Notes under the pieces: generated by a model
Told to the model about the DNA's origin: nothing
Database searches by the model: none
The model's input: the letters and a program-made list of their open reading frames with translations, nothing else
In this document: one piece after another, positions 6,125-29,254 of the stretch
Layout: each line of letters begins with the position of its first letter
Position numbering within the stretch: position 1 is the stretch's first letter
Source: Vicinamibacterales bacterium
GTDB taxonomy: Bacteria; Acidobacteriota; Vicinamibacteria; Vicinamibacterales; UBA8438
DNA length: 32,000 nucleotides
Direction of reading: 5' to 3'
NCBI GenBank assembly: GCA_965214845.1
Contig: CBDCCO010000007.1
Coordinates: forward strand, 5,748,549 to 5,780,548
Translations under genes and position numbers: made by a program

Positions 6125-6186
6125 TGGCGTATCTCCTCCGGGTTGTCGAGGCCGGTACATCTTACAGAGATCGCGCGGGAGGCACG

Positions 6187-9622: not shown

Positions 9623-12472
9623 ATGATCGATCCGATCGCGAACGCCGCCACGCGGGCGGGTTGCTGCTGCGTCCTGGCCATGGTGCTGGCGGCGGGCGGC
9701 GTCCGTGCCGGCCAACCCCCCGCCCCGGCGTCCCCGGCGCCGCGCGCCGCGGTCGGCATCGTGCCGTTCACGAACCTGAGCCGCGCGGCGGCGGACCGCT
9801 GGATCGGCCGCGGCATCGCGGTCGCGCTCGCCGCCGACCTGCGGCGCGAGCACGGGCTCGAGGTCCTCGACGGCGTCCTGGGCGGCGAGTCGGCGGTCGC
9901 CGGCGACGAGGACGCCGCGCTGCGTTTCGCCCGCGAGCTCGGTGCGCGGTGGCTCGTGGCCGGAGACTACCAGCGGATCGGCGACGGGCTGCGCATCACC
10001 GCGCGCCTGATCGACGTTGCGACCGGCGTCGCCGCGCACGCCGAGCGCGTCGACGGCACGGTCGGCGAGCTGTTCGCGCTGCAAGATCGTCTCGCGGCCG
10101 CGCTCGGCCCCCGCCTGCGGGGCGCGAGCACGGCGGGCCGGCCCGCCGTGCCCCGGCCTGTTGCGGCCCCGCCGGCCGCGGCCCTGCCAGCGGCCGACCC
10201 GCCGAGCCCGGCGGGTCCGGTCCGCGCGCCGGCCAGCGGCCTGGCCGCGCCGACCCTGGCCATCTACGGCCCGCCGCCGCCGGTGGCGCCCGAAGTCGTC
10301 GCCCGGGACGCCGCCGGCCGCCTCACCATTCGCGCCGTCCGGCTCGCGGCGCCCATCGCGTTCGACGGTCGGCTCGACGACGAGATCTACACGACCGTGC
10401 CGCCGCTGTCCGACTTCATCCAGCAGGAGCCGCAGGAGGGGGCGCCGGCCACGGAGCGGACCGACGCGTGGGTGTTCTTCGACGACGAGCGCGTCTACTT
10501 CTCGTTCCGCGTCTGGGAGACCGCGCCGGAGCGCGTCATCGCCAACGAGATGCGGCGCGACAACTCCAACGTGTACCAGAACGACCACATCGCCTTCGTC
10601 ATCGACACGTTCTACGACCGCCGCAACGCGCTGGAGTTCCTCGTCAACCCGATGGGCGGCCGCATGGACGGCCAGATCACCAACGAGCGCTTCTACAACG
10701 GCGACTGGAACCCCATCTGGGACGTCGAGGTCGGCGAGTTCGACGGCGGCTGGACGCTCGAGACCGCCATCCCGTTCAAGTCGATCCGCTATCGGCGCGG
10801 GGCGGCCCAGATCTGGGGCTTCAACGTGCGCCGGGTGAGCATCTGGAAGAACGAGCACTCGTTCCTCACCCGCGTGCCCAGCTCCATGGGCGGCTCGGGG
10901 ATCTTCCTGATGTCGCGGGCGGCGACCCTGGTCGGGATCGAGGCGCCGGTGCAGTCGACGAATCTCGACATCAAGCCGTTCGCCATCATGGACCTGAGCA
11001 GCGACCACCTCGTGCGTCCGGCCATCTCCAACGCGCTCGGCGGCGATGCGGGCCTCGACGTGAAGTACGGCGTCACGCAGAACCTGGTGGCCGACCTGAC
11101 GGTCAACACGGACTTCGCCCAGGTCGAGGCGGACGAGCAGCAGGTGAACCTGACACGGTTCAGCCTGTTCTTTCCCGAGAAGCGCGAGTTCTTCCTCGAG
11201 AACCAGGGTCTGTTCGCGTTCGGCGGCGCCGGCTCCGGCGCGTTCGGAGGCAGCGGCAGCACGCCGATACTCTTCTACAGCCGCCGCATCGGCCTGCACG
11301 AGGGGCGCGAGGTCCCGATCCGGGCCGGCGGGCGGCTGAGCGGCCGCATGGGCCGGTTCAGCGTCGGGGCGCTGAACATCCAGACGGGCGACACGCAGCT
11401 CGGCGGCGCGCCGGCCGACCGGGTGCAGGCCGCGAACTTCACCGTGCTGCGGGTCAAGCGGGACGTGCTGCGGCGCAGCAGCGTCGGCGGCATCTTCACC
11501 CGGCGCGCCGGCTCGCACGGCGGACCCGCGTGGAACGAGGCCTACGGCCTCGACGGCACGTTCTCCTTCTTCGACGACCTCACCATCAACACGTACTGGG
11601 CCCAGACCCGCGCCGCCGAGCGCCTGCAGGACGACGTCAGCTACCGCGGACAGCTCGACTACGCCGGCGACCGCTACGGCGTGCAGCTCGAGCACCTCGT
11701 GGTCGGCGACAACTTCAACCCGGAGGTGGGATTCCTGCAGCGCGACGACTTCGAGCGCAGCTACGGCGCCTTCCGGTTCAGTCCTCGCCCGCACGCCATC
11801 GCGGCCATCCGCAAGCTGTACTTCGAGGGCCGGCTCGACTACTTCACCGACCGGACGGGCGTCGTCGAGACGCGGATCGGCCAGGGGCTCTTCTCCATCG
11901 AGTTCGAGAGCAGCGACCGCTTCGACGCCACCTACACGCGCAGCTACGAGTTTCTCGACCAGCCGTTCCGGATCGCGTCCGACGTGACGATCCCGGTCGG
12001 CGGCTACCGCTTCCAGGACGTGGATCTGCTCTACAGCTTCGGCCTGCAGCGGCGGCTGAGCGGCGGACTGGGCATCCAGCACGGCAGCTTCTTCGGCGGG
12101 GAGAAGACGACCGCGCGGCTCGGACTGGGCGGATTCCGCCGCAGCGGCCGGCTGGAAGTGTCGCCGCAGGTCTCCGTGGAGCCGGGCTTCGAGTACAACC
12201 GCATCACGCTGCCCCAGGGGCAGTTCACCACGCGGCTCGTGACCACGCGGACCACCTACACGGTCACGCCGCTCATGTTCGTCAGCGCGCTGCTGCAGTA
12301 CAACTCCACCAACAACTCGCTGGGCGCCAACGTCCGGCTGCGCTGGGAGTACCAGCCGGGCAGCGAGCTGTTCGTGGTATACAACGAGCAGCGCAACACG
12401 CTGACGCCGCGCATGCCCGTACTGCAGAACCGGGCCCTGATCGTCAAGTTCAACCGCCTGTTCCGGTTCTGA
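9623..12472 (+). CDS. DUF5916 / carbohydrate-binding-family-9-like outer-membrane protein with an N-terminal TolB-N/FlgO-like domain
   Basis: 949-aa ORF with a signal peptide. The CBM9-like region reads 'FDGRLDDEIY...DFIQQEPQEG...NDHIAFVIDTFYDRRNALEF...W..A IPFKSIRY'. A long beta-barrel-like C-terminal region ends in 'KFNRLFRF' (terminal Phe). Confidence 0.75.
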   Translation: MIDPIANAATRAGCCCVLAMVLAAGGVRAGQPPAPASPAPRAAVGIVPFTNLSRAAADRWIGRGIAVALAADLRREHGLEVLDGVLGGESAVAGDEDAALRFARELGARWLVAGDYQRIGDGLRITARLIDVATGVAAHAERVDGTVGELFALQDRLAAALGPRLRGASTAGRPAVPRPVAAPPAAALPAADPPSPAGPVRAPASGLAAPTLAIYGPPPPVAPEVVARDAAGRLTIRAVRLAAPIAFDGRLDDEIYTTVPPLSDFIQQEPQEGAPATERTDAWVFFDDERVYFSFRVWETAPERVIANEMRRDNSNVYQNDHIAFVIDTFYDRRNALEFLVNPMGGRMDGQITNERFYNGDWNPIWDVEVGEFDGGWTLETAIPFKSIRYRRGAAQIWGFNVRRVSIWKNEHSFLTRVPSSMGGSGIFLMSRAATLVGIEAPVQSTNLDIKPFAIMDLSSDHLVRPAISNALGGDAGLDVKYGVTQNLVADLTVNTDFAQVEADEQQVNLTRFSLFFPEKREFFLENQGLFAFGGAGSGAFGGSGSTPILFYSRRIGLHEGREVPIRAGGRLSGRMGRFSVGALNIQTGDTQLGGAPADRVQAANFTVLRVKRDVLRRSSVGGIFTRRAGSHGGPAWNEAYGLDGTFSFFDDLTINTYWAQTRAAERLQDDVSYRGQLDYAGDRYGVQLEHLVVGDNFNPEVGFLQRDDFERSYGAFRFSPRPHAIAAIRKLYFEGRLDYFTDRTGVVETRIGQGLFSIEFESSDRFDATYTRSYEFLDQPFRIASDVTIPVGGYRFQDVDLLYSFGLQRRLSGGLGIQHGSFFGGEKTTARLGLGGFRRSGRLEVSPQVSVEPGFEYNRITLPQGQFTTRLVTTRTTYTVTPLMFVSALLQYNSTNNSLGANVRLRWEYQPGSELFVVYNEQRNTLTPRMPVLQNRALIVKFNRLFRF
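12362..12386. repeat. 25-bp direct repeat, copy 1 (agcgagctgttcgtggtatacaacg)
   Basis: Perfect match to 13971..13995. This copy lies inside the 3' end of the DUF5916 CDS (codons for SELFVVYN). Confidence 0.9.
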
Positions 12473-12544
12473 GCGGACGGCAGGCGTCCCCCGTTTCCGG
12501 CTACGTGCCCGTTGCAGTCCGGCCGAGCGCCGCCCGGTTCTGGC

Positions 12545-12572
12545 TTGGCGATCAGAACAGGATAGGTATAAT
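12545..12572 (+). promoter_or_regulatory. Candidate sigma70-type promoter (TTGGCG-N16-TATAAT) with an overlapping inverted repeat
   Basis: ttggcg lies at 12545-12550 and tataat at 12567-12572. The inverted repeat ataggt...acctat (12562-12583) spans the -10 box. A caggag Shine-Dalgarno sequence at 12591-12596 precedes GTG 12603. Confidence 0.4.
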
Positions 12573-12602
12573 AGGACACCTATTCACCGACAGGAGACAC
12601 CT

Positions 12603-13517
12603 GTGACCGGGACACCAACCACCTTCTGGGAACACGTCGAGGACCTGCGCCGGCGGAGGCTGATTGCCCGCGTCTGGAAAATTGGCCACCTCATCGAGCA
12701 CCTCGAGGGGTCGTTCAAGGCGAATGCCATCAACGTCATTCCGTACAATTCCAGCGTTTCGAGAGAAGGCGCAGGGCTTGGAGACTACGTGAAGAGGGGG
12801 GTCGCTCCCAGGGCATGGCGGGTAGGACGAGGCCAGTTCCAACTGATCGCCGATCCTGAGGACGATGCGTCCACCCGGGCATCCCAGAAGAGCTGGGCGA
12901 TGAAACGAGCGGAGCAGCTCAGAGCGCTGAAGAGGCGGCCGGGTGTTCGGCGGGACACGACTCCGGCGTCGCAGCCTGATCGTTTCGGCCCGGAAAACGA
13001 GTCGGTACCGGGTTCCTCGGAATTGTACTCATCGATACCCGTCACCCTCACCGACTCGGACCGCGAAGCCATCGAGCACCTCACGACCGAGCAGAGAGCC
13101 TTGCACATCGTGAAGAAGCACCTCATCGAGAAGCACGGAGGCCAAGTGACGATCGAAGAGGACGAGGCCGGCGCCGATCTCAGGGTCTCCGTCAGCGGGG
13201 ACAGCGAGAGAATCGAGGTCAAGGGCACCGAGTCGCCGAGCATCGCCTGGCAGCAGCTGAAGGTGTCCAGCCAGAGATCCCACGACGCCCTGGAGAGCCG
13301 CGAGGCGTCGATCTACCGCGTCGTCGATGTCGGCGGCGCGCATCCTCGGATCTACGTTCTGAAGCACGGGCAGCACTTCACGCTGGAGCCTGAGCTCAGA
13401 TGGGCGGTGAAGCGGCTCCCGCCGACAGACGGCCGCTATCCGTTGAGAGGGGAACCTTATCAGTACGATCGTCCATACGATTCAGTTGCGGCGCATGAAT
13501 GGGAGTTCCAGGGGTGA
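12603..13517 (+). CDS. Hypothetical protein with a C-terminal DUF3883-like (PD-(D/E)xK nuclease-like) domain; upstream partner of the PIN toxin
   Basis: 304-aa ORF with a GTG start. The C-terminal region 'GADLRVSVSGDSERIEVKGTESPSIAWQQLKVSSQRSHDALESREASIYRVVDV' matches the D...EVK...hYhV pattern of DUF3883. Its stop overlaps the PIN start (GTGA). Confidence 0.65.
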   Translation: MTGTPTTFWEHVEDLRRRRLIARVWKIGHLIEHLEGSFKANAINVIPYNSSVSREGAGLGDYVKRGVAPRAWRVGRGQFQLIADPEDDASTRASQKSWAMKRAEQLRALKRRPGVRRDTTPASQPDRFGPENESVPGSSELYSSIPVTLTDSDREAIEHLTTEQRALHIVKKHLIEKHGGQVTIEEDEAGADLRVSVSGDSERIEVKGTESPSIAWQQLKVSSQRSHDALESREASIYRVVDVGGAHPRIYVLKHGQHFTLEPELRWAVKRLPPTDGRYPLRGEPYQYDRPYDSVAAHEWEFQG

Positions 13518-13903
13518 TCGTGCTGGATACCCATGCCTGGGTATGGTGGACGATCGATCCTTCGCGACTGGGCGAGACTCAGCGGCAGGCGATAGCCGAC
13601 AGTGAGGGCGACCGGATTGGCGTCAGCGCGATCTCCTGCTGGGAAGTGGCGAAGCTGTGCGAGTACGGACGCCTTGCGTTGCCCGTCGGGCTGTCCGAGT
13701 GGTTCCGAGCCGCGCTCGGCTACCCGGGCGTCACACTCCTCGATCTCACGCCGGAAATTGCCATCGAGTCGACGTCCTTGCCAGGCGTCTTCCATCGCGA
13801 CCCGTCCGACCGGATCATCGTCGCGACCGCCCGAGTACACCGAAGCCCGCTTGTGACCTCCGACGACAAGATCGTCAGCTACCCGCACGTGCAAACGCTG
13901 TAG
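13514..13903 (+). CDS. vapC: PIN-domain (VapC-like) type II toxin ribonuclease
   Basis: I place the start at GTG 13514 (GTGA overlap with the upstream stop). Motifs 'IVLDTHAWVWW', 'DPSDRIIVATA' and 'LVTSDDKI' provide the conserved acidic PIN residues. Confidence 0.85.
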   Translation: MIVLDTHAWVWWTIDPSRLGETQRQAIADSEGDRIGVSAISCWEVAKLCEYGRLALPVGLSEWFRAALGYPGVTLLDLTPEIAIESTSLPGVFHRDPSDRIIVATARVHRSPLVTSDDKIVSYPHVQTL

Positions 13904-13914
13904 CCCGTGGAGGA

Positions 13915-13939
13915 GGGGATCCAGGGGGGGGATCCAGGG
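13915..13939. repeat. Tandem GGGGATCCAGGG x2 (13-bp period) with a G8 run
   Basis: ggggatccaggg occurs at 13915-13926 and again at 13928-13939, and a third 'gggggat' lies at 13944-13950. The repeat sits between the PIN stop and direct-repeat copy 2. Confidence 0.85.
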
Positions 13940-13970
13940 TGCCGGGGGATGCGTTGCCGACGATGGGGAG

Positions 13971-13995
13971 AGCGAGCTGTTCGTGGTATACAACG
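13971..13995. repeat. 25-bp direct repeat, copy 2
   Basis: Perfect match to 12362..12386. It is intergenic, 28 nt upstream of ATG 14024. Confidence 0.9.
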
Positions 13996-14023
13996 TGGTC
14001 CGCAGCGAATCGGGAGGTCCTGT

Positions 14024-15035
14024 ATGAGAAACCGCGCCAACCGTCGCCAACGCCTCGCAGCAGCGTCGTGCTCGATCGCCGCGGCTCTCGTGCTCTCGGC
14101 CGCGCCGGCCGCCGGTCAGGGCGAGAGTGCGTCGCCGGCGGCTCGCACGCCGTGGGGCGACCCCGATCTGCAGGGAATCTGGTACTTCGCCACCGTCACG
14201 CCCATGGAGCCCCGCAGAGCTGGCCGGCCGGGCGGTGCTGACGGAGGAAGAGGCGGCCGCCGTCGAGCAACGGTATGCCACCGCCCGGGACCGGCCGAAT
14301 CCGCGCATCGGGGAGGAGTGTCCCGCGGAGTTCTTCGCCTGCGAGGGGTCGGGGCTCGCGTACGAGTGGCGCATCTGGCTGGACCTCGGCACCACGGTCG
14401 TCAGCACGCGGCGCACGTCGCTGGTGGTGGACCCGCCGGACGGGCGCATCCCCGCGCTGACGCCCGCGGGCGAGGCGCGGCGGCAGGCGGAGCTGGCCGC
14501 GTACGCGCGCGCCGCCGGTCCCGAGGATTTCTTCCTGCACGACCGCTGCGTGGTGGGCTACAACTCCGGACCGCCCTTGACGCCGGGGCCGTCCCTGAAT
14601 CTCGTGCAGGTGTTCCAGAGCCCGGGATTCGTCGCGATCCGGCCGGAGATCGGCGATGCCCGGGTGATCCCGACGGACGGTCGCCCGCGCAGCACGTTCC
14701 GGCAGTGGCAGGGCCAGCCGCGCGGCCGCTGGGAGGGCGACACGCTGGTCGTGGAGACCCGCCACGCGCGCGTCTTCATGAACGCGACGCAGGCGACCCC
14801 GTGGCTGCGCCTCGTCGAACGCTTCACGCGCACGGAGGCTGATACGCTTCTCTACGAGGTGCAGGTCGAGGATCCGACCACCTGGACGCGGCCGTGGGCG
14901 TTCGAGCTGCCGATGACGCGCAGCGCCGGCCCGCTCTACGAGTACGGCTGTCACGAAGGCAACTACTCGCTGCCGGTCATGCTCGGCGGCGCCCGGCTGG
15001 CCGAGCGAAACGCCGCGACGGCGCCCGCGCGCTGA
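14024..15035 (+). pseudogene. Paralog family copy 2, frameshifted near 14210
   Basis: The N-terminus ('MRNRANRR...signal...TPWGDPDLQGIWYFATVTPME') is in the frame of ATG 14024, with a GGGAGG Shine-Dalgarno sequence. The rest ('PAELAGRAVLTEEE...EYGCHEGNY') is in the frame of track ORF 14127..15035. Compared with the four other copies, the conserved Arg codon of '(E/Q)RPAE' is reduced to a single c at 14210. Confidence 0.75.
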
Positions 15036-15063: not shown

Positions 15064-16074
15064 ATGCCGAATCTCGACCGTCGTCTTCCAGCCGGCCTGG
15101 CGTCGTGTTCGATCGTTACCGCCGTGCTGCTGCTGGCGCCCGTGCCGGCCGCCGGCCAGGCCGGCCCGCCGCCCTCGCCGACGCCGTGGGGGGCGCCCGA
15201 TCTGCAGGGCATCTGGAGCTTCGCCACCCTGACGCCGATGCAGCGGCCCGCGGAGCTGGCGGGCCGGGCGGTGCTGACGGCGGAAGAGGCGGCCGCCTAC
15301 GAGCAGCGCGACGCCGAGATTCGCAGCCGGCCGAATCCGGCCACCTTCGACGAAGCGTGTCCCGAGGACTTTCCGTTCTGCAGCCAGGCGCCGCTGGCGT
15401 ACGAGTTCCGCATCTGGCTCGATCGCGGCACCACGGTCGTGAGCACGCGGCGCTCGTCGCTGGTGGTGGACCCGCCGGACGGACGCATCCCCGCGCTGAC
15501 CCCCGCGGCGCAGGCGCAACGGGAAGCGGCGCGCGCCGCCAGCCTGCGGGCCCGCGGCCCGGAGGACCGCAGCACGGTCGACCGCTGCATCGTGGGCTTC
15601 AACGCCGGGCCGCCGGTCACGCCCGGACCGTACCTGAATCACCTGCAGGTGTTCCAGAGCCCGGGCTACGTGGCGCTCCTCCCGGAGATGGGCGATGCCC
15701 GGGTGATCCCAACGGACGGACGCCCGCGGGGCGCCTTCCGGCAGTGGCAGGGCCAGCCGCGCGGCCGCTGGGAGGGCAGCACGCTGGTCGTGGAGACCCG
15801 CCACGCGCGCACGTTCATGCGCGACCCGGCCGGCCCGGCGCTGCGCCTCGAGGAACGCTTCACGCGCGCCGACGACGGCACGCTGCTCTACGAGGTGCGG
15901 GTGGACGACCCGACCACCTGGATCCGGCCGTGGGCGTTCGAGGTGCCGATGACGCGCAGCGCGGGCCCGCTCTACGAGTACGCCTGCCACGAGGGCAACT
16001 ACGCGATGCCCAACATCCTCAGCGCCGCGCGCGCCGAGGAGCGCGCCAGCGCCCCATCACCGCCCACGCGCTGA
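15064..16074 (+). CDS. Secreted hypothetical protein, paralog family copy 3
   Basis: AGGAGG Shine-Dalgarno sequence and a signal peptide. Motifs: 'WGAPDLQGIW', 'SLVVDPPDGRIP', 'GPEDRSTVDRC', 'DARVIPTDGRP', 'RQWQGQPRGRWEGSTLVVET' and 'EYACHEGNY'. It is very similar to copy 2, suggesting tandem duplication. Confidence 0.85.
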   Translation: MPNLDRRLPAGLASCSIVTAVLLLAPVPAAGQAGPPPSPTPWGAPDLQGIWSFATLTPMQRPAELAGRAVLTAEEAAAYEQRDAEIRSRPNPATFDEACPEDFPFCSQAPLAYEFRIWLDRGTTVVSTRRSSLVVDPPDGRIPALTPAAQAQREAARAASLRARGPEDRSTVDRCIVGFNAGPPVTPGPYLNHLQVFQSPGYVALLPEMGDARVIPTDGRPRGAFRQWQGQPRGRWEGSTLVVETRHARTFMRDPAGPALRLEERFTRADDGTLLYEVRVDDPTTWIRPWAFEVPMTRSAGPLYEYACHEGNYAMPNILSAARAEERASAPSPPTR

Positions 16075-18356: not shown

Positions 18357-19496
18357 CTAGTTTGCCACGGATCCGGACGGGGCTCCCAGGCCGCGGTAGA
18401 CGAACTTCTGCACGCGGCTGCCCGGATTCGATTCCGCCACGTAGAGATTCCCGCTCGAATCCGCCGCCAGGTGGTGGATGCCCCGGAACTGGCCGGGGCC
18501 GTCGCCCTCGCTGCCGAACGCATCGAGGATCGCGAGCGCCCGGCGCTCGACCACCACGACGCGCGAGTTGAAGTCGGCGACGTACAGGAAGCGCTGCTCC
18601 GCGTCGGGCGAGAACGCCACGCGCGACGCCGACCGCCGCGACGGCGCGGCGCGATTGATGAACAGCTGGGTCCGGTACGTGCCGTCGAGCGCGAACACCT
18701 GGATCCGCCGGTTGTCCCGATCGCAGACGTAGACCAGCCCGTCGTCCGCGACCGTGACGCAGTGGACCGCCGTGACCTGCAGCGGCGGATTGGTGAACTG
18801 GTCCGGCCCCCGACCCGTCGCGTCCAGCGGCTCGTCCTCCGCCGCGGCCGGCGCTGCGTCCGGCGGAATTCCGAACCCGCCCCACATCCGCTTGAAGGCG
18901 CCGGTGTCCGCGTCGAAGACGATGACGCGCCGGTTGCCGTAGCCGTCGGCCACCAGCAGCTCGTTGGTCGCACCGTGCACGAACTGGTCGGCCGGCTGGT
19001 GGAGGTTGCCGGTGTCCGCGTTGCCGGCGCTCGCCCCGCGGCGTCCGATCTGCAGCAGCAGGGTGCCGTTGGCGGTGAACTTGAGCAGCATGTCGTCGGC
19101 CGGCGGCTCTCCCGACCGGCCGCCGACCCACACGTTGTCCTTGTAGTCGACGAAGATGCCGTGCGCGATCGCCGGCCACTCGTAGCCGTCGCTGGGTCCG
19201 CCCCAGCCCTGCAGGTAGCGGCCCGCCGCGTCGAACTCGAGCACCGCCGGGCCGCTCTCGGGCCGGTGCAGGATCCAGACGTGATCCTGGCGGTCGACCG
19301 CGACCGAGGTGACCTCGCCCATGCTCACCGTGTCGGGAATGGCCGGCCACCCGGGATCCACCTCGAACCGCGGCACCTGCCCGGCGGGCTGGTTCCGGGC
19401 GGCCGCCGCCCGTTCGAGCGCGGCCTGACCCAAGGCCAGCGCGGCGAGAAGGGCCAGCAGCACCCCGGCGGCGACGACGTGACGGTTGGCGCCCAT
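18357..19496 (-). CDS. NHL-repeat / six-bladed beta-propeller protein (PAL-like)
   Basis: The C-terminal 379 aa of track ORF 18357..20690, with the start placed at ATG 19496, followed by a signal anchor. Repeated blades include 'LLVADGYGNRRVIVFD', 'VYVCDRDNRRIQVF' and 'LYVAESNPGSRVQKF'. The gene ends 5 nt before the MBL start. Confidence 0.8.
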   Translation of the reverse strand: MGANRHVVAAGVLLALLAALALGQAALERAAAARNQPAGQVPRFEVDPGWPAIPDTVSMGEVTSVAVDRQDHVWILHRPESGPAVLEFDAAGRYLQGWGGPSDGYEWPAIAHGIFVDYKDNVWVGGRSGEPPADDMLLKFTANGTLLLQIGRRGASAGNADTGNLHQPADQFVHGATNELLVADGYGNRRVIVFDADTGAFKRMWGGFGIPPDAAPAAAEDEPLDATGRGPDQFTNPPLQVTAVHCVTVADDGLVYVCDRDNRRIQVFALDGTYRTQLFINRAAPSRRSASRVAFSPDAEQRFLYVADFNSRVVVVERRALAILDAFGSEGDGPGQFRGIHHLAADSSGNLYVAESNPGSRVQKFVYRGLGAPSGSVAN

Positions 19497-21854: not shown

Positions 21855-21900
21855 ATCTGGAGGAGGCCGACGCCGGGGGCTTGGGGCGCAGCCCCATCTG
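21828..21900. repeat. Tandem duplication of a 32-bp unit (gacgccgggggcttggggcgcagccccatctg), 41-bp period
   Basis: Perfect copies lie at 21828-21859 and 21869-21900. Each contains the ggggc-gca-gcccc mini-hairpin. The repeat lies just upstream of the Shine-Dalgarno sequence and start of the cyclase-family gene. Confidence 0.85.
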
Positions 21901-21916
21901 AATCTGGAGGAGTGAG

Positions 21917-22887
21917 ATGAGAACCGGAGTCGCTTGTCTGACGGCGGTGCTCCTGGCGGGTCTGGCGCTCCACACCGGCCGCGCGCAGTCCGACCACGAG
22001 GTGACGCGCGCCGAGTACGACCGCTGGAAGACCGAGCTGTCGAACTGGGGGCGCTGGGGCGCGGACGACGAGATCGGCACGCTGAACCTGATCACGCCCG
22101 CCAAGCGCCGCGAGGCCGCCGCGCTGGTGCGCGACGGCGTGTCCGTGTCGCTGTCGCTCGACCTCGACACCGAACCGGCGGTCGACAACGGCAGCCCGTT
22201 CGTCCAGGAGATCTACGGCCTCGGCGGCGACGGGTGGCACATCCGCTACCACGGCTACGGCATGACGCACATCGACGCGCTGGCCCACGTCTTCGACGAC
22301 GGGGCGACTACAACGGCTACGTCCCGGACGAGGCGGAGGTGCTGGCGAACGGGCATCCGCGCAGCTCGATCCACAACCTCAAGCACGGCATCGTCACGCG
22401 CGGCGTGCTGATGGACATCCCGCGGCTCAAGGGCGTGGACTATCTCGAGCCGGGCACGGCCATCTACCCCGAGGACCTCGAGGCCTGGGAGCGGCAGGCC
22501 GGGTTCAGGGTGTCCGCCGGCGACGCGATGTTCGTGCGCACGGGACGCTGGGTCCGCCGCGCGCGGATGGGCCCCTGGCCCATCGCCGAGCAGGCGGCCG
22601 GACTTCACGTCTCCTGCCTGCCGTGGCTGCGGGAGCGCGACGTGGCGCTGCTCGGCGGCGAGTCGCCGCAGGACGTCGAGCCGATGGTCGGGGGTCCGGG
22701 CGTCCAGTACGCGCTGCACAACTTCCTGATCATCCGCCTGGGGATGCACCTGTTCGACAATGTCGACCTGACCGCGCTGAGCGAGACGGCGGCGGAGCTC
22801 GACCGCTGGGAGTTCATGCTCACCGTCGCGCCGCTGGCGGTGCGCGGCGGGACCGGTTCCGCCGTCAACCCGATCGCGACGTTCTGA
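21917..22887 (+). pseudogene. Cyclase-family (kynurenine-formamidase-like) protein, frameshifted near 22301-22306
   Basis: The N-terminal part, with a signal peptide and 'HGYGMTHIDALAHVFDDG', is in the frame of ATG 21917. The remainder ('DYNGYVPDE...VLMDIPR...GDAMFVRTG...') is in the frame of track ORF 21934..22887. The junction lies at the G-run gacggggcgac, consistent with loss of 1 nt. Confidence 0.7.
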
Positions 22888-22905
22888 CGTCCGGAGGAGG
22901 GTTGC

Positions 22906-23841
22906 TTGCGCAGAGCCAGCGTCGGACTGACGTTGATCGGCGTCCTCCTGCTGCCGGCCGCGGCGGCCGCGCAGACGGGCGCGGACGCCGCCGGCGTCCC
23001 GCGCACCCCCTGGGGCGCGCCGGATCTCATGGGGTACTGGACGTACGACACCACGACGCCCCTGCAGCGCCCCGCGGAGCTGGCGGGCAGGGAGGTGCTC
23101 ACCCCGGCCGAGGCGGCCGCGTTCCTCGACGCGCGCTACGCCAGCATCGGCCGCGAGCGCGCCCTGCAGCTCAACGCGGACTGGTGGGTGCCCGGGGATC
23201 TGACGGGCGGCCGCACGGCGTTGATCGTCGATCCGCCGGACGGCCGGATCCCCCCGCGGACGGCCGCCGGGCGGGCGCGGCTCGCGGCGCTCGCGCCGCC
23301 GCTGAGAAGCCGCTCGGCGGACGGACCCGAGGACCGCGAGCGGTACGAGCGCTGCATCATGGGCCGCTCGATCCCGATGGAGGCCCGGCCCGCGCCGCGC
23401 CTGTTCCAGGTCTTCCAGACGGCGGACCACGTGGTCCTGCTCAACGAGCAGAACTTCGAGATCCGCATCATTCCGCTGACCGGCGCCCCGCCGCTTCCCG
23501 CTTCGATCCGCCAGTGGCGCGGCGAGGGACGCGGGCGCTGGGACGGCGACACCCTGGTCATCGAGACCACCAACTTCAACGGCAAGTGGACGCTGCACGG
23601 CGCCGGTCCGGAGCTGCGGCTCGTCGAGCGGCTCTCGTTCGCGGACCCGGACACGCTGCAGTACGAGTTCACCGTGCACGATCCGGCGTCGTTCACCCGC
23701 CCCTGGACCGTGCAGTTTCCGATCGCGCGCGCGGCCGGGCCGCTCTACGAGTTCGCCTGCCACGAGGGCAACTACAGCCTGCCGCTCATCCTGAGCGGCG
23801 CGCGGGCGGAGGAAGCGGCGGCCGCCGGGGCAGTGCCGTAA
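22906..23841 (+). CDS. Secreted hypothetical protein, paralog family copy 5
   Basis: TTG start 5 nt after a GGAGGAGG Shine-Dalgarno sequence, followed by a signal peptide. Motifs: 'WGAPDLMGYW', 'ALIVDPPDGRIP', 'GPEDRERYERC', 'IRQWRGEGRGRWDGDTLVIETTNF', 'LRLVERLSF' and 'EFACHEGNY'. Confidence 0.8.
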   Translation: MRRASVGLTLIGVLLLPAAAAAQTGADAAGVPRTPWGAPDLMGYWTYDTTTPLQRPAELAGREVLTPAEAAAFLDARYASIGRERALQLNADWWVPGDLTGGRTALIVDPPDGRIPPRTAAGRARLAALAPPLRSRSADGPEDRERYERCIMGRSIPMEARPAPRLFQVFQTADHVVLLNEQNFEIRIIPLTGAPPLPASIRQWRGEGRGRWDGDTLVIETTNFNGKWTLHGAGPELRLVERLSFADPDTLQYEFTVHDPASFTRPWTVQFPIARAAGPLYEFACHEGNYSLPLILSGARAEEAAAAGAVP

Positions 23842-23885
23842 ACGACCGGGCAGCGCAACGGCCGGAAGGATGGATGCGAAGAACC

Positions 23886-23975
23886 CGACCGGCCCTGTGG
23901 ATCGCCTTGGCGATCGCGCGCGCCCGGATGCCGCCATGGTTCATCGACGAGAACATCGGCGTGCAGGGCTTCTGA
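23886..23975 (+). pseudogene. Internal fragment of a paralog of the CxxCH/PHM-like gene (2285..3706)
   Basis: It translates to 'RPALWIALAIARARMPPWFIDENIGVQGF*', compared with 'RPWARSIRNRTQSREMPPWFIDRNIGIQDY' in the intact gene. By hand count, 38 of 45 nt are identical between 23928-23972 and 2552-2596. There is no start codon, signal peptide or CxxCH upstream, and the similarity stops where GC content drops. Confidence 0.7.
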
Positions 23976-24208
23976 TTGGATCGGCTCTCAAAACCGTCAA
24001 AAGAAGGACGCTATTGAGCATCTATCCGTTCGTTTCCCTCGCTGCATTCCTCGTTCAGAAGCGGGCTGCGATAGACCGAGAGCGCCATCGCCGGACGGAC
24101 TGGTCCAGGCCGGCTCGCGTCATCGCCCCCCCCAGGCGCAGCCCGACGAGCCCGCACGGCACCGTGGTAGCATGATTTGGGGCTTGGCGCCCAAGGGATC
24201 ACATAGCA

Positions 24209-26206
24209 GTGGCCGTGAGTCCAGACCTGATTCACGCCGGGAAAGGCGCTGCGTCAGCGGGAGCCCCCGACGCTGAATCAGAGACAACCGTTCCGCGGGT
24301 TTGGGTCGTGCGCGCCGACGGCGGCAAGTGCACAGACCATTTCCTCTCCGGCGGCTACGCCGCGGTCGGATGGTTCGATTTGTCGTCCGTCGATACCCGC
24401 GACCAACTTCGGAAGGTCTACGAACTAGAGTACCCAGAGGCCGCTGCCGGCCGGCTCGCCAACGAGATCGGCCAGCTCGCGGCATTTCGTCTAGAGATGA
24501 ACGAAGGCGACTACGTAGTCACGCCGGCCGCAGACCACGAATCGCTGCGATACGGCCGTATCGTCGGTCCCTGTGTCGCCTTCCGGGGTGACGACGGCTG
24601 CCGTTATCGGAATCGCCGAGCCGTCAACTGGGTCGAGACCCCACTCCGTCGGTCGAGCTTCGGCGAGTCGTTCCAGCGTACGCTCGGCTCGCCACGCACA
24701 GTATTCCGCATCGGTCAGCCCGAGGAGTTCATCGCCGCGATAGCACGTCCTCCAGATGTGTCGCGGGACGACACCATCAGTCCCCCCCCCACTGCACGGC
24801 GCGGGACCTCACCAGCCGAGGACGACGCCGTCCCGAGTATCCGACCCGAGGCGATGTCGGATGCTGCGCGACCGTTGCCGGGGACCATGACCGGCCGGGT
24901 CTGGGACATCGCCGAGGAGATTACGCGTGAGAAGGGTCGTTGTGCCGAGCGCAGTGAGGTCATCGAGCGTTTCACGGCCCAGGGTGGGAACAGGGGTACG
25001 GCTAGTACAACGTACTACAGGTGGAAGCAGCACTATGACGCTCGACCGCCGTCCGAGTGCGTTGAGGTCGAACCCAGCCATGCGGTTGAAGATCACCTGC
25101 CGGCCCGTGAAGAAGACGATGTCGAACCGGACAGCGGTGTCGAGGAAGAACGGGACGATCCGGACGCGGTCATCAGCGAGCCTTTTGACCCGTCGAAGAT
25201 CAAGGTTCGCACGATCCCAGTTCTCGTTGATCAACTTGTGGAGCGCATCAGATACGCCGAAATCGATCTGGCCCCTGATTTTCAGCGGATGCGGGGCATC
25301 TGGAAGCCGGTCAACAAGAGTCGGTTGATCGAGTCCCTCTTGCTACGGATCCCGATTCCTGTCTTCTACGTCGCAGCGGATGTAGATGACAACTGGGAGG
25401 TGGTCGACGGCGTCCAGCGATTGTCCACCTTGTACGACTACGTCACCGACCAGTTCGCGTTGAACGGACTGGAGTACCGGGTGGAGTTCAACGGCAGGCG
25501 TTTCGAGCAACTGCCGCGCGTGATGCAGCGCCGGATCCGCGAGACACAACTCGTCGTGAACGTCATCGAGCCGGGGACACCACCCGAGGTGATGTTCAAC
25601 ATCTTCAGCCGCATCAATACCGGCGGAATGAAGCTCAACGCACAGGAAATCCGCCATGCCTTGCATCCCGGGCCGGTGCGGGATTTCTTGAAGACATTGG
25701 CGGATTCCGACGCCTTCGCCGCCGCGACGAATCGATCGATCAAGTCGGATCGGATGATCGACCGCGAGTGCGTACTGCGGCTTCTCGCTTTCCACATCGA
25801 ACAGTGGGAGCAGTACAGAAGTCGCTCTCTTGACGGATATCTCGCTGGGATCATGAAGCGGATCAACGCCATGACTCCCGGCGAGCGAGACATGCTCCGC
25901 ACCGACTTTGAGAAGGCGATGCTGGCCGCGAAGCGCATATTCGGGGGCAAAGCGTTCCGAAACATCTCCAATGAACGTGCTCGGATCAACAAGTCGCTCT
26001 TCGAAGCGTGGGGTGTTCAGTTGGCGCGTTGTTCTCCGAACGATATCGAGCAGCTTGTCGGCTACCGCAAAGAGATCGTCACGAGGTTTCGGACGGTGCT
26101 GAAGGATCCGGAGTTCGACAAGGCGATCTCCCAAGCGACCGCCATGCCCCAGCGGATACGGAAGCGGTTTACCACGATCCGCGACTTGGTGCAGGAGTTC
26201 GTCTGA
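24209..26206 (+). CDS. DUF262 (ParB/GmrSD-N-like) domain protein with a roughly 320-aa N-terminal extension
   Basis: 665-aa ORF with a GTG start (24209 or 24215). The C-terminal half carries DUF262 motifs: 'DLAPDFQR...W....SRLIESLLLRIPIPVFYV', 'WEVVDGVQRLSTL' and 'FSRINTGGMKLNAQEIRHAL'. The N-terminal domain begins 'VWVVRADGG...GYAAVGW' and is followed by an HTH-like segment ending 'GTASTTYYRWKQHY'. Confidence 0.85.
   Translation: MAVSPDLIHAGKGAASAGAPDAESETTVPRVWVVRADGGKCTDHFLSGGYAAVGWFDLSSVDTRDQLRKVYELEYPEAAAGRLANEIGQLAAFRLEMNEGDYVVTPAADHESLRYGRIVGPCVAFRGDDGCRYRNRRAVNWVETPLRRSSFGESFQRTLGSPRTVFRIGQPEEFIAAIARPPDVSRDDTISPPPTARRGTSPAEDDAVPSIRPEAMSDAARPLPGTMTGRVWDIAEEITREKGRCAERSEVIERFTAQGGNRGTASTTYYRWKQHYDARPPSECVEVEPSHAVEDHLPAREEDDVEPDSGVEEERDDPDAVISEPFDPSKIKVRTIPVLVDQLVERIRYAEIDLAPDFQRMRGIWKPVNKSRLIESLLLRIPIPVFYVAADVDDNWEVVDGVQRLSTLYDYVTDQFALNGLEYRVEFNGRRFEQLPRVMQRRIRETQLVVNVIEPGTPPEVMFNIFSRINTGGMKLNAQEIRHALHPGPVRDFLKTLADSDAFAAATNRSIKSDRMIDRECVLRLLAFHIEQWEQYRSRSLDGYLAGIMKRINAMTPGERDMLRTDFEKAMLAAKRIFGGKAFRNISNERARINKSLFEAWGVQLARCSPNDIEQLVGYRKEIVTRFRTVLKDPEFDKAISQATAMPQRIRKRFTTIRDLVQEFV
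24782..24790 (+). repeat. C9 homopolymer inside the DUF262 CDS (encodes PPP)
   Basis: Nine consecutive C residues follow t24781, in frame as ccc ccc ccc, in the linker between the N-terminal domain and the HTH-like segment. Confidence 0.9.
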
Positions 26207-27606
26207 TGCTGCGGCGGATAGGGCTGACCAACTTCAAGTGCTTCGAGAATCTCGACTTGCCGTGCGCCCCGCTCAACCTGCTCTGCGGCCTGAACGGGAT
26301 GGGCAAGAGCAGCGTGATCCAGGCTTTGCTGGTGCTGCGGCAATCGTTTGAGACGGGGGATTTACAGGAGGGCCGACTCGTACTGGGTGGCACGCTGACG
26401 GATTTGGGGGCCGGTTCGGACGTACTGTTTGAGGATGCTGGCGACGAGGTCGTCGGATTCACCCTCCACGGCGACCACGCGCAGCCGCCTTGGACCCAGT
26501 ACTTTGGATACTCGCGCGGCAGTGATCAACTGGTGGCGATCAGGACACCGCCGACGGGTGCGGATCTGCACAACGCCGCAGATGTGAAGTCATGCCCCGT
26601 AACGGGGCAGCCGACCAGGGGTGGAAATGTCTTTTCGGGAGCGGGATCAGATGCCAAGGCCAAGTCGGTCATTAACGCATTGCTGCGGGATGATCCGCGG
26701 GCAGACGCGCGATTGGCTGATCTTGCCGACCCGCAACGGATCCAGACCGCTGCCGCCAAGGCGAAGGCCGCAGGGCTGTCGCACGTCGACCGAGTCAGTA
26801 GCTGGCTGCGTACGGAGTCCGAGGCTGCTAATGCCGGTGTTGGCGTAGCGCCAACTTGGCAGGCAAGCAGCCCGTTCGGTGGGCGTCTTGTCTACGTGCA
26901 GGCAGACCGGACTGGACCTCGCAAGTCCTACCCACTGTCAGAAGTGCTGGCACGCCGGGGCGATTTCGGCCGCCGCGGCGAGTACGCCTGGAACTACCTC
27001 AACGACCACCAGAACGACGCTCTGCCCGCAGTCGATCCGCGCTGCGGGGACGGCGCGACACGGCGACTGCGGGGTGCTGTCGATCACTGGTTGCAGGATG
27101 TCAGTCCCGGCGCACATCTGCAGCTTGAATCGATCCTTGCCGCCGACGCGGTCCTTGCGGGCTTCACATTCGATCGGCCGGGCGACGTCATGTCACGACG
27201 GCACCGCGCGACCAATGTCGGCTTCGGGCTGTCCTACGTGTTCCCGGTTGTGCTGGCCCTGCTGTCCGAGCCCGGTACACTTTGCCTCATCGAGAACCCG
27301 GAAGCGCACCTTCATCCGCGCGGGCAAACGAAGCTGGCGGAACTTACCGCGCGTGCTGCGGCGGCGGGCGTGCAGGTTTTCGTCGAGACTCACAGCGACC
27401 ACTTCCTGGACGGAGTGCGGCTTGCAATCCACGACGGCCTGATTCCGCCCGCTGACGCTGCGATTCACTACTTCGAGCGCGAAGGGGGACAGGCGATCGT
27501 GTCCTCACCGACCGTCGACGCCGACGGGCGCCTGTCCGGTTGGCCCGTTGGCTTCTTCGATCAGCACGAAGAGAATCTCGCGAGGTTGCTCGCGCCGCGG
27601 AACTGA
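26206..27606 (+). CDS. AAA_15/AAA_21-type ATPase with a DUF3696-like C-terminus
   Basis: ATG 26206 overlaps the upstream TGA (tgatg). It has Walker A 'GLNGMGKSS', 'LCLIENPEAHLHP' and 'VFVETHSDHFLDGVRLAI...IHYFERE'. A low-complexity insertion of roughly 120 aa lies between the N- and C-terminal ATPase halves. Confidence 0.85.
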   Translation: MLRRIGLTNFKCFENLDLPCAPLNLLCGLNGMGKSSVIQALLVLRQSFETGDLQEGRLVLGGTLTDLGAGSDVLFEDAGDEVVGFTLHGDHAQPPWTQYFGYSRGSDQLVAIRTPPTGADLHNAADVKSCPVTGQPTRGGNVFSGAGSDAKAKSVINALLRDDPRADARLADLADPQRIQTAAAKAKAAGLSHVDRVSSWLRTESEAANAGVGVAPTWQASSPFGGRLVYVQADRTGPRKSYPLSEVLARRGDFGRRGEYAWNYLNDHQNDALPAVDPRCGDGATRRLRGAVDHWLQDVSPGAHLQLESILAADAVLAGFTFDRPGDVMSRRHRATNVGFGLSYVFPVVLALLSEPGTLCLIENPEAHLHPRGQTKLAELTARAAAAGVQVFVETHSDHFLDGVRLAIHDGLIPPADAAIHYFEREGGQAIVSSPTVDADGRLSGWPVGFFDQHEENLARLLAPRN

Positions 27607-27607
27607 C

Positions 27608-28552
27608 GTGCGCGAGATGATCCTGAACCACGCGAGCTTGGCGCCGACCGCGTGGCGTGATGCGCTGAGCTTTCTGCCGGACTTGGCGGACGGCATGGCA
27701 GTGCTCGTCCGATCTGGGGCAGCTCAATCCACGTTGCGAATGTCCCGATCGTTGCACGAAACATACTGGCCGGCCGAACGGTCGCTGTTCGATGCCCTCC
27801 GGGAAGTGATGCGGCAAGGGGCGCGGGATCAGTCCCTGTTTCTCATGAAGCTGAGCGAGAAGGCACCGCTTCTGAGCGACCTCGCGCCGGAAGTCACCGG
27901 TCGGTTTCGGATGTGCGAGACGAAGATGTTGCCGCCGGGCGACGGAGCGCCGCTCGTGCTGTGTGCCGTCACAGACGCGATCTGTGTTGGCATGCCATCG
28001 GAGCCCGTCTGGGATCGCGATCGACTTCCAGTTGACTTCGTGGAGCTATTGCCCGACGGCAGGTTTGCGGATGCGCACGAAGAGATCGACAACCTGACGC
28101 GGTCGGTGCATGCTGGTCCAATCGTCGACCGCCACCGCACGCGGCTTCGACACGAATGTTCGAACGCAGGCGACCTGTGGCACCGACGAGAGCAGGTATT
28201 CCCACACTTGACATTCGGCCCGGACGTTGAAGATCATCTCACGGCGTTGAACGCCGGGTGGCTCTCGACACTCGTCAACAGACTGGCGGACCTCGACGCG
28301 GCGGCGAAGGAATGGCTTATCATCGGTGGGCCTGCCCCGCCTTGGAAGACGAGCGTGACACCGGAGAGCGAACGGGTGATGCAGAATCCAGCCCTGCGTG
28401 AGGCCCGCCGCTTCCGATCCGACCGCAGCGGTACCACAGTCCTGTTCGAATGGCATGCCCGGGTCGGCAGCGGAGCCCGGATACACCTGCGGTTTGATGC
28501 GCGGACACGGGAGATCGAGATCGGCTACATCGGCGTTCATCTCCCGACATGA
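27608..28552 (+). CDS. Hypothetical protein (orphan third gene of the operon)
   Basis: It starts at GTG 27608 (1 nt after the ATPase stop) or ATG 27617. It is about 312 aa with protein-like composition and no motif I recognise. The C-terminus reads 'LFEWHARVGSGARIHLRFDARTREIEIGYIGVHLPT'. Confidence 0.7.
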   Translation: MREMILNHASLAPTAWRDALSFLPDLADGMAVLVRSGAAQSTLRMSRSLHETYWPAERSLFDALREVMRQGARDQSLFLMKLSEKAPLLSDLAPEVTGRFRMCETKMLPPGDGAPLVLCAVTDAICVGMPSEPVWDRDRLPVDFVELLPDGRFADAHEEIDNLTRSVHAGPIVDRHRTRLRHECSNAGDLWHRREQVFPHLTFGPDVEDHLTALNAGWLSTLVNRLADLDAAAKEWLIIGGPAPPWKTSVTPESERVMQNPALREARRFRSDRSGTTVLFEWHARVGSGARIHLRFDARTREIEIGYIGVHLPT

Positions 28553-28822
28553 GCCGACTGCACACCGACTACGCGTCACAGGATGACTTGCGGTGCTGGC
28601 CGACGGTTCGTTCGACATGTGGTTCGGGTACCTGACTGAGGCGATAGGCGAGCACCGGAACCGTGGCGTTCGACCCGTGGGTGCCGGAGATCGTGGGCGG
28701 CGGGCGCTCACCACGGTTGGCTTCAGCGCCCCGAGCATCTACGCGCTGCAGCCTTGCGGTGACGACATGGTCCTGACCGTCGCGGCCAACGTGACCTCAA
28801 CGGTGCGCCCGCCCCCCCGCAC

Positions 28823-29254
28823 GTGATGGCCGCAACCATCGTTGCCGCCACCCTGCTCTCCCTGCTCGCCGTCGGCCTGCACTACGAGGCGCTGGTGCTC
28901 GCCTCGGCGGTCGTTCGCGGCCTGCCGGCCGGCTCGGCGCGCTTCGGCGTCGCGCTGGCGGTCGTCCTCGCGCTCGTGGCGCACATCGTCGAGGTCGTCG
29001 TCTTCGGCGTCGGGTGGTACGGGCTGATCCAGGCCGGGGCGGTCGCGCTGTCGGTCGAGTCGCCGACGATGCTCGACGCCGTCTACTTCTCCGGCGCGGT
29101 CTACACGTCGCTCGGCTTCGGCGACATCGTGCCGGTCGCCAACGGCGAGATCCTGGCGGTGTCCGAGGCGGTCACCGGGCTCGTGCTGATCGGCTGGACC
29201 GCATCCTTCACCTTCTTCCAGATGCGGGAGCGCTGGGAACCGCGCCGCGGGTGA
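28823..29254 (+). CDS. Two-TM ion-channel family protein (K+-channel pore-like)
   Basis: 143-aa hydrophobic ORF (GTG 28823 or ATG 28826). The selectivity-filter-like pore motif 'YFSGAVYTSLGFGDIVP' is flanked by transmembrane helices. Confidence 0.8.
   Translation: MMAATIVAATLLSLLAVGLHYEALVLASAVVRGLPAGSARFGVALAVVLALVAHIVEVVVFGVGWYGLIQAGAVALSVESPTMLDAVYFSGAVYTSLGFGDIVPVANGEILAVSEAVTGLVLIGWTASFTFFQMRERWEPRRG

Follow-up and report, generated by a model that had tools for sequence, protein, structure and literature searches.

Menshen is a three-gene system (nsnA, nsnB and nsnC), whose anti-phage activity was first shown in Solibacillus silvestris (Millman et al., 2022, as cited in PMC12065111); the S. 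silvestris operon protects against T2, T4, T6 and Fado. In the sensor-transducer-effector model of Li et al. (2025, NAR, PMC12065111), NsnA senses DNA, NsnB transduces and NsnC cleaves RNA. NsnB is predicted to form a tetramer of ABC ATPases resembling GajA, with DUF3696 tails that are predicted to clamp the N-terminal domain of NsnC, and a BECR RNase fold is reported for most NsnC effectors. The survey in the same paper covered 1997 Menshen systems, 23% of which are Type II, in which NsnA has extra N-terminal domains. These NsnA-N domains fall into at least 33 families, including winged-helix families and two PUA-like families (PS-PUA1 and PS-PUA2), and were read by Li et al. as added sensors, some of them for modified bases. 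Here we describe a locus at positions 24209-28552 of a 32,000-nucleotide stretch of the genome of a Vicinamibacterales bacterium (contig CBDCCO010000007.1), which is referred to throughout as the window. The locus is very probably an intact Type II Menshen system, carried on an acquired insert of about 4.95 kb in an acidobacterial chromosome, and would work by the mechanism modelled by Li et al.

Identity of the locus

The three encoded proteins were searched against the PADLOC profile library, Pfam, NCBIfam and PHROG. Gene 1 matches the PADLOC NsnA profile with E=3.3e-136 (residues 302-664 against profile positions 21-382 of 385), gene 2 matches the NsnB profile with E=4.9e-99 (residues 1-462 against positions 1-343 of 345), and gene 3 matches two NsnC profiles from end to end (E=1.5e-54 and 1.5e-53, the better match aligning residues 1-314 with positions 1-312 of 316). 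Because all three matches are essentially full length, beginning at residue 302 for the core of NsnA, the locus is identified as Menshen. The NCBIfam search of the three proteins added nothing specific. The A-B-C order with identical junctions was found in two Acidobacteria metagenome-assembled genomes (MAGs), denoted L001 and L002, and a Methylobacterium plasmid carries a Type I triad annotated as DUF262, DUF3696 and hypothetical protein, which adjoins transposase genes.

The genes are all on the plus strand, as are the domains within them and the upstream region described below. The sensor gene nsnA occupies 24209-26206 and encodes 665 amino acids (aa) if translated from the GTG at 24209, or 663 aa from the GTG at 24215. 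The second start is probably the correct one, since the ATG of related genes aligns with the second GTG of the window. The ATPase gene nsnB (26206-27606, 466 aa, from an ATG) is coupled to nsnA by a TGATG overlap, in which the stop codon TGA at 26204-26206 and the start codon at 26206-26208 have the A in common. The nsnB stop codon at 27604-27606 is followed by a gap of 1 nucleotide (nt), and then by the GTG of the effector gene nsnC (27608-28552, 314 aa). This start agrees with the consensus MREMILNH of the NsnC homologues, as seen in a 38-sequence alignment.

The system has in common with Type II Menshen the three coupled genes in A-B-C order and the extra N-terminal sensor domains of NsnA, where a DUF8426 domain (residues about 30-185) and a helical segment (about 219-278) precede the ParB-DUF262 core. 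Further common features are an NsnA with ParB-DUF262 and helical C-terminal domains and without a nuclease, an NsnB consisting of an AAA_15-type ABC ATPase with an EN Walker B motif and a DUF3696 tail, and an NsnC predicted here to have a non-catalytic N-terminal α/β domain and a BECR-type RNase domain. The tested S. silvestris system, in contrast, is of Type I and has no NsnA-N domain, whereas NsnA-N in the window is a tandem of DUF8426 and a small helical domain. The window system also differs in having an acidobacterial host and in being a solitary locus, not beside BREX or restriction-modification genes.

An earlier note on this DNA, made from the sequence alone, had described three coupled open reading frames (ORFs) on the same strand, and had likened their domain content to that described for Menshen. 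The ORFs, the TGATG overlap and the 1-nt gap lie where it placed them, the peptide motifs that it quoted are all found in the translations, and profile hidden Markov models agree that DUF262 is present in gene 1 and AAA_15/21 with DUF3696 in gene 2. The suggested link to Menshen was correct, in that the PADLOC matches are gene for gene, and the proposed checks of co-conservation gave intact A-B-C triads in L001 and L002 as well as the Methylobacterium plasmid triad. The N-terminal extension that it saw on gene 1 is real, at about 300 aa, and its view of the locus as a nucleic-acid-directed immune operon on acquired DNA is supported. It was mistaken, by contrast, in proposing a novel or variant system of undescribed architecture with an orphan third gene. 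The NsnA, NsnB and NsnC profiles are matched end to end, N-terminal sensor domains on NsnA, PUA-like ones included, are published as Type II Menshen (PMC12065111), and gene 3 is a common type of NsnC, with full-length PADLOC matches and 927 homologues. The note had itself allowed that a gene-for-gene match to a described system would make the operon real but not novel, and this is the result. Since the three genes match Menshen in this way, and the N-terminal add-ons are already published, the locus is real and well delimited, yet is a member of a described class and not a new system.

NsnA and its N-terminal domains

The core of NsnA, which comprises ParB-DUF262 and a C-terminal helical region of the ParBDB type, is encoded by 25112-26200 and was delimited using Pfam, PADLOC and motifs. 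Pfam GmrSD_N/DUF262 is matched at residues 345-486 with E=6.9e-20, and the family motifs FQRMRGIW, DGVQR and FSRIN are all present in the translation; diagnostic motifs for NsnA and NsnB were defined by Li et al. (2025, PMC12065111). The C-terminal region is recognised at the sequence level, from the match to the PADLOC NsnA profile, which continues up to position 382 of 385 at residue 664.

A DUF262 NTPase that has the QR..W, DGxQR and FxxxN motifs and precedes a helical DNA-binding region is also found in the type IV restriction enzymes GmrSD, BrxU and SspE (DUF262-DUF1524), which sense modified DNA. These enzymes carry a DUF1524/HNH nuclease on the same polypeptide, whereas no DUF1524 or HNH match was found in NsnA by Pfam, and the effector of the window system is a separate RNase-like protein under the control of an ABC ATPase. 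The best PADLOC match of gene 1 is NsnA, and not a GmrSD-type model.

The N-terminal extension of about 300 aa, which precedes the start of the PADLOC NsnA match at residue 302, contains two domains. The first (24296-24763, residues about 30-185) is DUF8426 (PF28530), as indicated by a match to the PADLOC candidate PDC-S02, by Pfam on homologues, and by AlphaFold2 and Foldseek. It matches the N-terminal half of PDC-S02 (positions 3-164 of 324) with E=5e-46, and PF28530 is the precomputed Pfam family recorded on its homologues. No match for the extension was obtained in the copy of Pfam that was searched, which does not include PF28530. An exhaustive search found DUF8426 in 1482 clusters at 50% identity. 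Its fusion partners in a sample of these are Mrr_cat, McrB-like AAA_5, EVE with AAA_5, and DUF262/GmrSD_N; there are sometimes two copies of DUF8426 with AAA_5, while EVE was seen once, as was a fusion to NERD and a kinase.

PDC-S02 and Mrr/McrB-type enzymes have in common with NsnA an N-terminal DUF8426 of about 155 aa, located where type IV enzymes have EVE, SRA or YTH-like readers. In those proteins it is joined to an Mrr_cat PD-(D/E)xK nuclease or to a McrB-like AAA_5 GTPase, and in the window it is joined to NsnA. Gene 1 is not itself PDC-S02 (DUF8426 with Mrr_cat, about 320 aa), as it has no Mrr_cat, which is carried by the family members P0150 and P0014. Because it is attached to modification-dependent restriction enzymes of the Mrr and McrB types, DUF8426 probably reads a modified base, and this evidence from domain association for a type IV-style reader is strong.

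The AlphaFold2 model of DUF8426 has predicted local distance difference test (pLDDT) values of 70-90. Its best Foldseek matches in the PDB are YTH domains, which are readers of N6-methyladenosine (m6A), and the PUA-like structure 1zce, with E of about 1e-3, probability of about 1.0 and a template modelling (TM) score of about 0.5, and a phage protein in BFVD is matched with E=1e-10. The model thus points with moderate confidence to a PUA-like reader fold of the YTH/EVE type. The likeness to the published PS-PUA1 and PS-PUA2 is at the level of the PUA-like fold only, from the YTH and 1zce matches.

DUF8426 is also found in other settings. In Salmonella Infantis SARB27 (locus L094, 2932-4023) a DUF8426-Mrr gene, annotated as an Mrr-like restriction endonuclease, lies near BREX-region genes, with a HipBA toxin-antitoxin pair on one side and, on the other, homologues of STM4491 and STM4492, which belong to the Salmonella BREX locus. 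This is an independent defence-island context for DUF8426. A free-standing protein of 315 aa (locus L007, 8001-8948), consisting of DUF8426 and the helical domain only and 66% identical to NsnA-N of the window, is located between IS1595 transposase genes and a homologue of DruA (Druantia). It recurs in six assemblies, and may be a truncated NsnA or else a sensor in its own right.

The second domain of the extension is a small three-helix domain (24863-25042, residues about 219-278), recognised from PHROG matches and AlphaFold2. It has no Pfam match, and matches PHROG families 18634, 7864 and 11298, which are of unknown function, with E values from 1e-9 to 1e-6. The model has helices within residues 234-277 with pLDDT of 50-66. 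It probably serves in DNA binding, as a small module resembling a helix-turn-helix, this being a weak assignment.

A likeness of residues 16-133 (24254-24607) to Shiga toxin, a ribosome-inactivating protein (RIP), was judged to be a chance match. The segment matches residues 105-221 of the Shiga toxin 2 A subunit with E=4e-4 among PDB sequences, and also in NCBIfam, including the motif L-x-Y/W-G-R-I. The catalytic interpretation was rejected on several grounds: E167 of the toxin aligns to Ala, the aligned Arg varies among family members, the match disappears when a 29-sequence family profile is used, and no RIP is found in the Foldseek results.

NsnB and NsnC

NsnB matches Pfam AAA_15 (E=1.4e-19), AAA_21 and DUF3696 (E=2.2e-14, residues 413-461), the DUF3696 tail being encoded by nt 27442-27588. 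The Walker A motif GLNGMGKS is at nt 26287-26313, and Walker B is of the EN form (LCLIENPE), an unusual Glu-Asn variant that has been described for NsnB (PMC12065111). The protein exceeds the PADLOC profile (345 positions) by about 120 aa, the surplus being located in a variable region around residues 85-222; nucleotide homology to L002 is interrupted at 26460-26872, which is the same variable segment. Septu (PtuAB), PARIS (AriAB) and Gabija (GajAB) likewise use an AAA_15/21 ABC ATPase to hold or control a toxic nuclease, and NsnB weakly matches the PADLOC AriA, GajA and PtuA profiles. The predicted Menshen assemblies resemble those of these three systems (PMC12065111). The partner proteins PtuB (HNH), AriB (Toprim) and GajB (helicase) have no counterpart here, and Menshen adds a dedicated DUF262 DNA sensor.

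NsnC has no match in Pfam, NCBIfam or PHROG. Its homologues at E<=1e-3 are about 310 aa long, and many are 55-90% identical to it. The AlphaFold model, made with the 38-sequence alignment, has a mean pLDDT of 85.6. Submitting the model to Foldseek, as had been proposed in the earlier note, showed that the C-terminal 70 or so residues resemble YoeB (7v6w, probability 0.95, TMt 0.65) and RelE1 (9g12). The C-terminus (residues about 245-314, nt 28340-28549) is accordingly a predicted BECR RNase domain of the YoeB/RelE type. Five residues are invariant in the alignment, namely H283, R285, R291, H293 and H311, and this set of His and Arg residues is compatible, as far as sequence can indicate, with a His-Arg-His site such as that of PB-BECR1. 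The N-terminal half forms an α/β domain, in which model and alignment place Asn7 at the position of the first catalytic Asp of PIN domains, and the PIN catalytic acids are absent. It is consistent with an inactive PIN domain.

Sister cassettes

A scan of species-representative genomes gave five close cassettes (L001-L005), all from Acidobacteriota MAGs. The sister cassettes show about 70-88% nucleotide identity. The homology covers 24026-28558, and the flanks are unrelated. L001 and L002 are intact triads with the same full architecture, including both add-ons, and the same junctions. In L004 (Bryobacterales, 9995-13766) the helical domain is exactly missing, in frame (window 24826-25114), and DUF8426 is kept, while nsnA is frameshifted and nsnC truncated. 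In L003 (Vicinamibacterales, 10001-12339) it is DUF8426 that is exactly missing (window 24252-24862) and the helical domain that is kept, and a deletion joins nsnB at about codon 116 to nsnC at about codon 97. L005 (10001-11269) is heavily deleted. As the sister cassettes without one or other add-on keep the same core, the add-ons are considered to be accessories. NsnA sensor modules are thus gained and lost as units, and the system often decays, with the window copy among the intact ones. Separately, L004 contains a second, distant NsnB-like ATPase fragment at 18927-19322.

This comparison bears on the suggestion that the locus is a genuinely new system which merely resembles Menshen, with the N-terminal extension and gene 3 making a different machine. 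The extension had no match in the copy of Pfam searched, and gene 3 none in Pfam, NCBIfam or PHROG, which is what such a system might show. The curated profiles for all three proteins are nevertheless matched over their full length, the add-ons of NsnA belong to an explicitly described class, and sister cassettes drop one or other of them with the core unchanged, so that a new system is extremely unlikely.

Loci of this type decay quickly, judging from the three of five sister cassettes that are deleted or frameshifted, and the window copy could in principle be a decaying and non-functional relic as well. No recognisable promoter was found for it, and a neighbouring host gene in the window has a 1-nt frameshift. 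Against this, its three ORFs are uninterrupted and match the profiles to their last residues, the catalytic and nucleotide-binding motifs are intact, and the start/stop coupling is kept. There is thus only a slim chance that the window copy is a relic.

The upstream region argues for a leader that moves with the cassette. Nucleotide homology begins at 24026 in L004, at 24153 in L005 and at 24162 in L003, and the presumed promoter/leader region is assigned to 24026-24214 on the basis of this homology and of the aligned block. A palindrome, CTTGGCGCCCAAG, is found at 24183-24195, in a block that is kept in the alignment of the cassettes. This conserved leader, some 60 nt in front of nsnA, contains a TAGCAT box in addition to the palindrome, and could serve as an operator or promoter. 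It is kept in the window, L003 and L004 and partly in L005, but not in L001 or L002. The region upstream of nsnA has no consensus sigma-70 site, and promoter and terminator signals were not above shuffled expectation.

The sister cassettes are also relevant to the view that the operon is mainly a toxin-restraint (addiction-type) module that stabilises acquired DNA, with NsnC as a RelE/YoeB-like toxin checked by NsnB and defence secondary or absent. The fold predicted for the C-terminus of NsnC would suit this view, as would the published prediction that NsnC is sequestered on NsnB, and a PIN toxin is encoded in another small islet of low GC elsewhere in the window (see below). However, the homologous S. 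silvestris system protects against T2, T4, T6 and Fado, and there are no genes for mobility or replication on the insert that such a module could stabilise. Furthermore, L003 and L005 have lost nsnB along with part of nsnC, which would be unexpected if loss of restraint were lethal. An addiction module is therefore considered very unlikely, and the locus is treated here as a Menshen defence system.

The insertion site

The operon has a GC content of 0.58-0.65, compared to about 0.72 for its surroundings. GC at third codon positions (GC3) is 0.73-0.74 in nsnA, nsnB and nsnC, compared to 0.95-0.96 in the genes on either side. An empty-site comparison together with GC3 places a horizontally acquired insert of about 4.95 kb at approximately 23860-28808, with boundaries accurate to about ±15 nt. 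For this comparison, relatives were taken from the cluster at >=90% identity of the 311-aa protein encoded upstream, which has 38 members; the contigs of three members gave five syntenic loci (L088-L092). The window is collinear with these loci over 21866-23851 and from 28809/28823 to 31999, with 87-93% nucleotide identity. The gene order in the relatives is a cyclase, the 310-aa gene, a 142-aa Ion_trans_2 channel, and then SLT and DUF169 genes on the opposite strand. Measured from the stop codon of the 310-aa gene, the channel gene starts after 0-30 nt in the relatives, as against about 4.95 kb in the window, and none of the five has Menshen. The genes on both sides of the insert are intact in the window, namely the upstream host gene at 22906-23841 (311 aa) and the ion-channel gene at 28823-29254 (143 aa). 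Because the site is uninterrupted in five relatives and both flanking genes are intact, the insertion is intergenic and acquired.

The operon had been described in the earlier note as lying in a lower-GC islet inside a destroyed host gene. The drop in GC and the acquired nature of the DNA are borne out, but not the destroyed gene, given the five empty sites and the two intact flanking genes. A direct test of the destroyed gene, using a chimeric query that combined the 33-codon ORF at 23874-23975 with a 77-codon ORF from the insert's right-hand end, gave no Pfam match and just one homologue, the 77-aa protein of the same genome.

The 77-codon ORF (28593-28826, plus strand, GC3 0.81) has a stop codon that overlaps the start of the channel gene (GTGATG). 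It has no match in Pfam or PADLOC, and its sole database match is an identical protein of the same genome. Homology to other Menshen cassettes stops at 28558, before this ORF. It is probably not part of Menshen, and may either be left over from the donor context or have arisen by chance. A search of the insert found no tRNA, integrase, convincing flanking direct or inverted repeats, or Rfam family. A metagenome scan with the upstream 311-aa protein gave relatives of at most 66% identity and no informative synteny.

The gene for the 142-aa Ion_trans_2 channel is present in the window and in four relatives, and is missing from L088 (10934-10970). Genes thus seem to have been gained and lost repeatedly at this intergenic spot.

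Other features of the window

The neighbouring genes are metabolic, encoding pyrroloquinoline quinone (PQQ) dehydrogenases, RtcB, cytochromes and the cyclase. The putative cyclase gene (21917-22887) is split into two frames at about 22308 by a one-base deletion (GGGGCGA-CTAC compared to GGGGCGACCTAC). It is intact, with 323 aa, in all five close relatives, and the split is due either to recent pseudogene formation or to an error in the assembly.

A second low-GC islet is found at 12476-13997 (GC 0.62-0.65), and is absent from the relative L088. It encodes a 304-aa protein (12603-13517), with a weak match (E=3e-4, just under the Pfam cutoff) to a PD-(D/E)xK domain of the NOV_C/DUF3883 type, and an overlapping 134-aa PIN-domain protein resembling VapC (13499-13903, E=7e-16). 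Neither matches PADLOC. The two may be a toxin-antitoxin or minimal defence pair.

The window also contains a multi-copy family of secreted-looking proteins of about 300-340 aa, at 14127-15035, 15064-16074, 22906-23841 and, more distantly related, 6037-7209. Their motifs are TPWGxPDLxGxW and CHEGNY, and the copies are interspersed with the PQQ-dehydrogenase genes. No match was found in Pfam, PADLOC or NCBIfam, and there are more than 560 relatives in soil and marine metagenomes. Both low-GC islets of the window abut a member of this family.

Proposed mechanism and significance

By analogy with the published model, the window locus is suggested to function as a relay from DNA sensor to ABC ATPase to RNase. 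NsnA would be the sensor, binding invading DNA via its ParB-DUF262 NTPase and C-terminal helical domain, with its recognition refined by DUF8426 and the small helical domain. In view of its partner domains elsewhere, DUF8426 may bias recognition toward modified phage DNA. Engagement of NsnA would alter the nucleotide state of NsnB, predicted to be a tetramer that holds NsnC by means of its DUF3696 tails, and the change in NsnB would then release or activate NsnC, the BECR domain of which would cleave RNA. The expected outcome is that phage transcripts are destroyed or that the infected cell is shut down.

Several points weigh against identifying the locus as a working Menshen system with this mechanism. 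For Menshen in general, the experimental support consists of phage protection by the S. silvestris operon only, the mechanism being based on models, and AlphaFold gave no contact between NsnA and NsnB in the published study (PMC12065111). The Foldseek matches of the N-terminal domain of NsnC to PIN-type proteins (FEN1 and VapC 4xgr) are very weak, with probabilities of 0.08-0.18. The locus is outside any defence island, with no PADLOC match in ten neighbouring proteins, and the damage to three of the five close sister cassettes has been noted above.

The window locus is a clean and intact Type II Menshen with a precisely defined insert and empty sites, which is useful because the mechanism of Menshen is not experimentally established. 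DUF8426 is a domain of unknown function, whose predicted PUA/YTH-like fold and type IV restriction partners make it a testable case for the reading of modified DNA. The sister cassettes, which differ by whole sensor modules, are natural constructs for finding how NsnA-N sets the target range.

We suggest tentatively, and with some doubt, that the tandem of DUF8426 and helical domain may be a combination outside the 33 catalogued NsnA-N families, in which case DUF8426 would be an uncharacterised PUA-like reader of modified bases that is common to Mrr-, McrB- and DUF262-based immune enzymes. If so, the specificity of Menshen would be re-tooled by in-frame gain and loss of modules over short evolutionary times, and the cassettes with both modules (the window, L001 and L002), with DUF8426 only (L004) and with the helical domain only (L003) would constitute a natural experiment on what each module senses.

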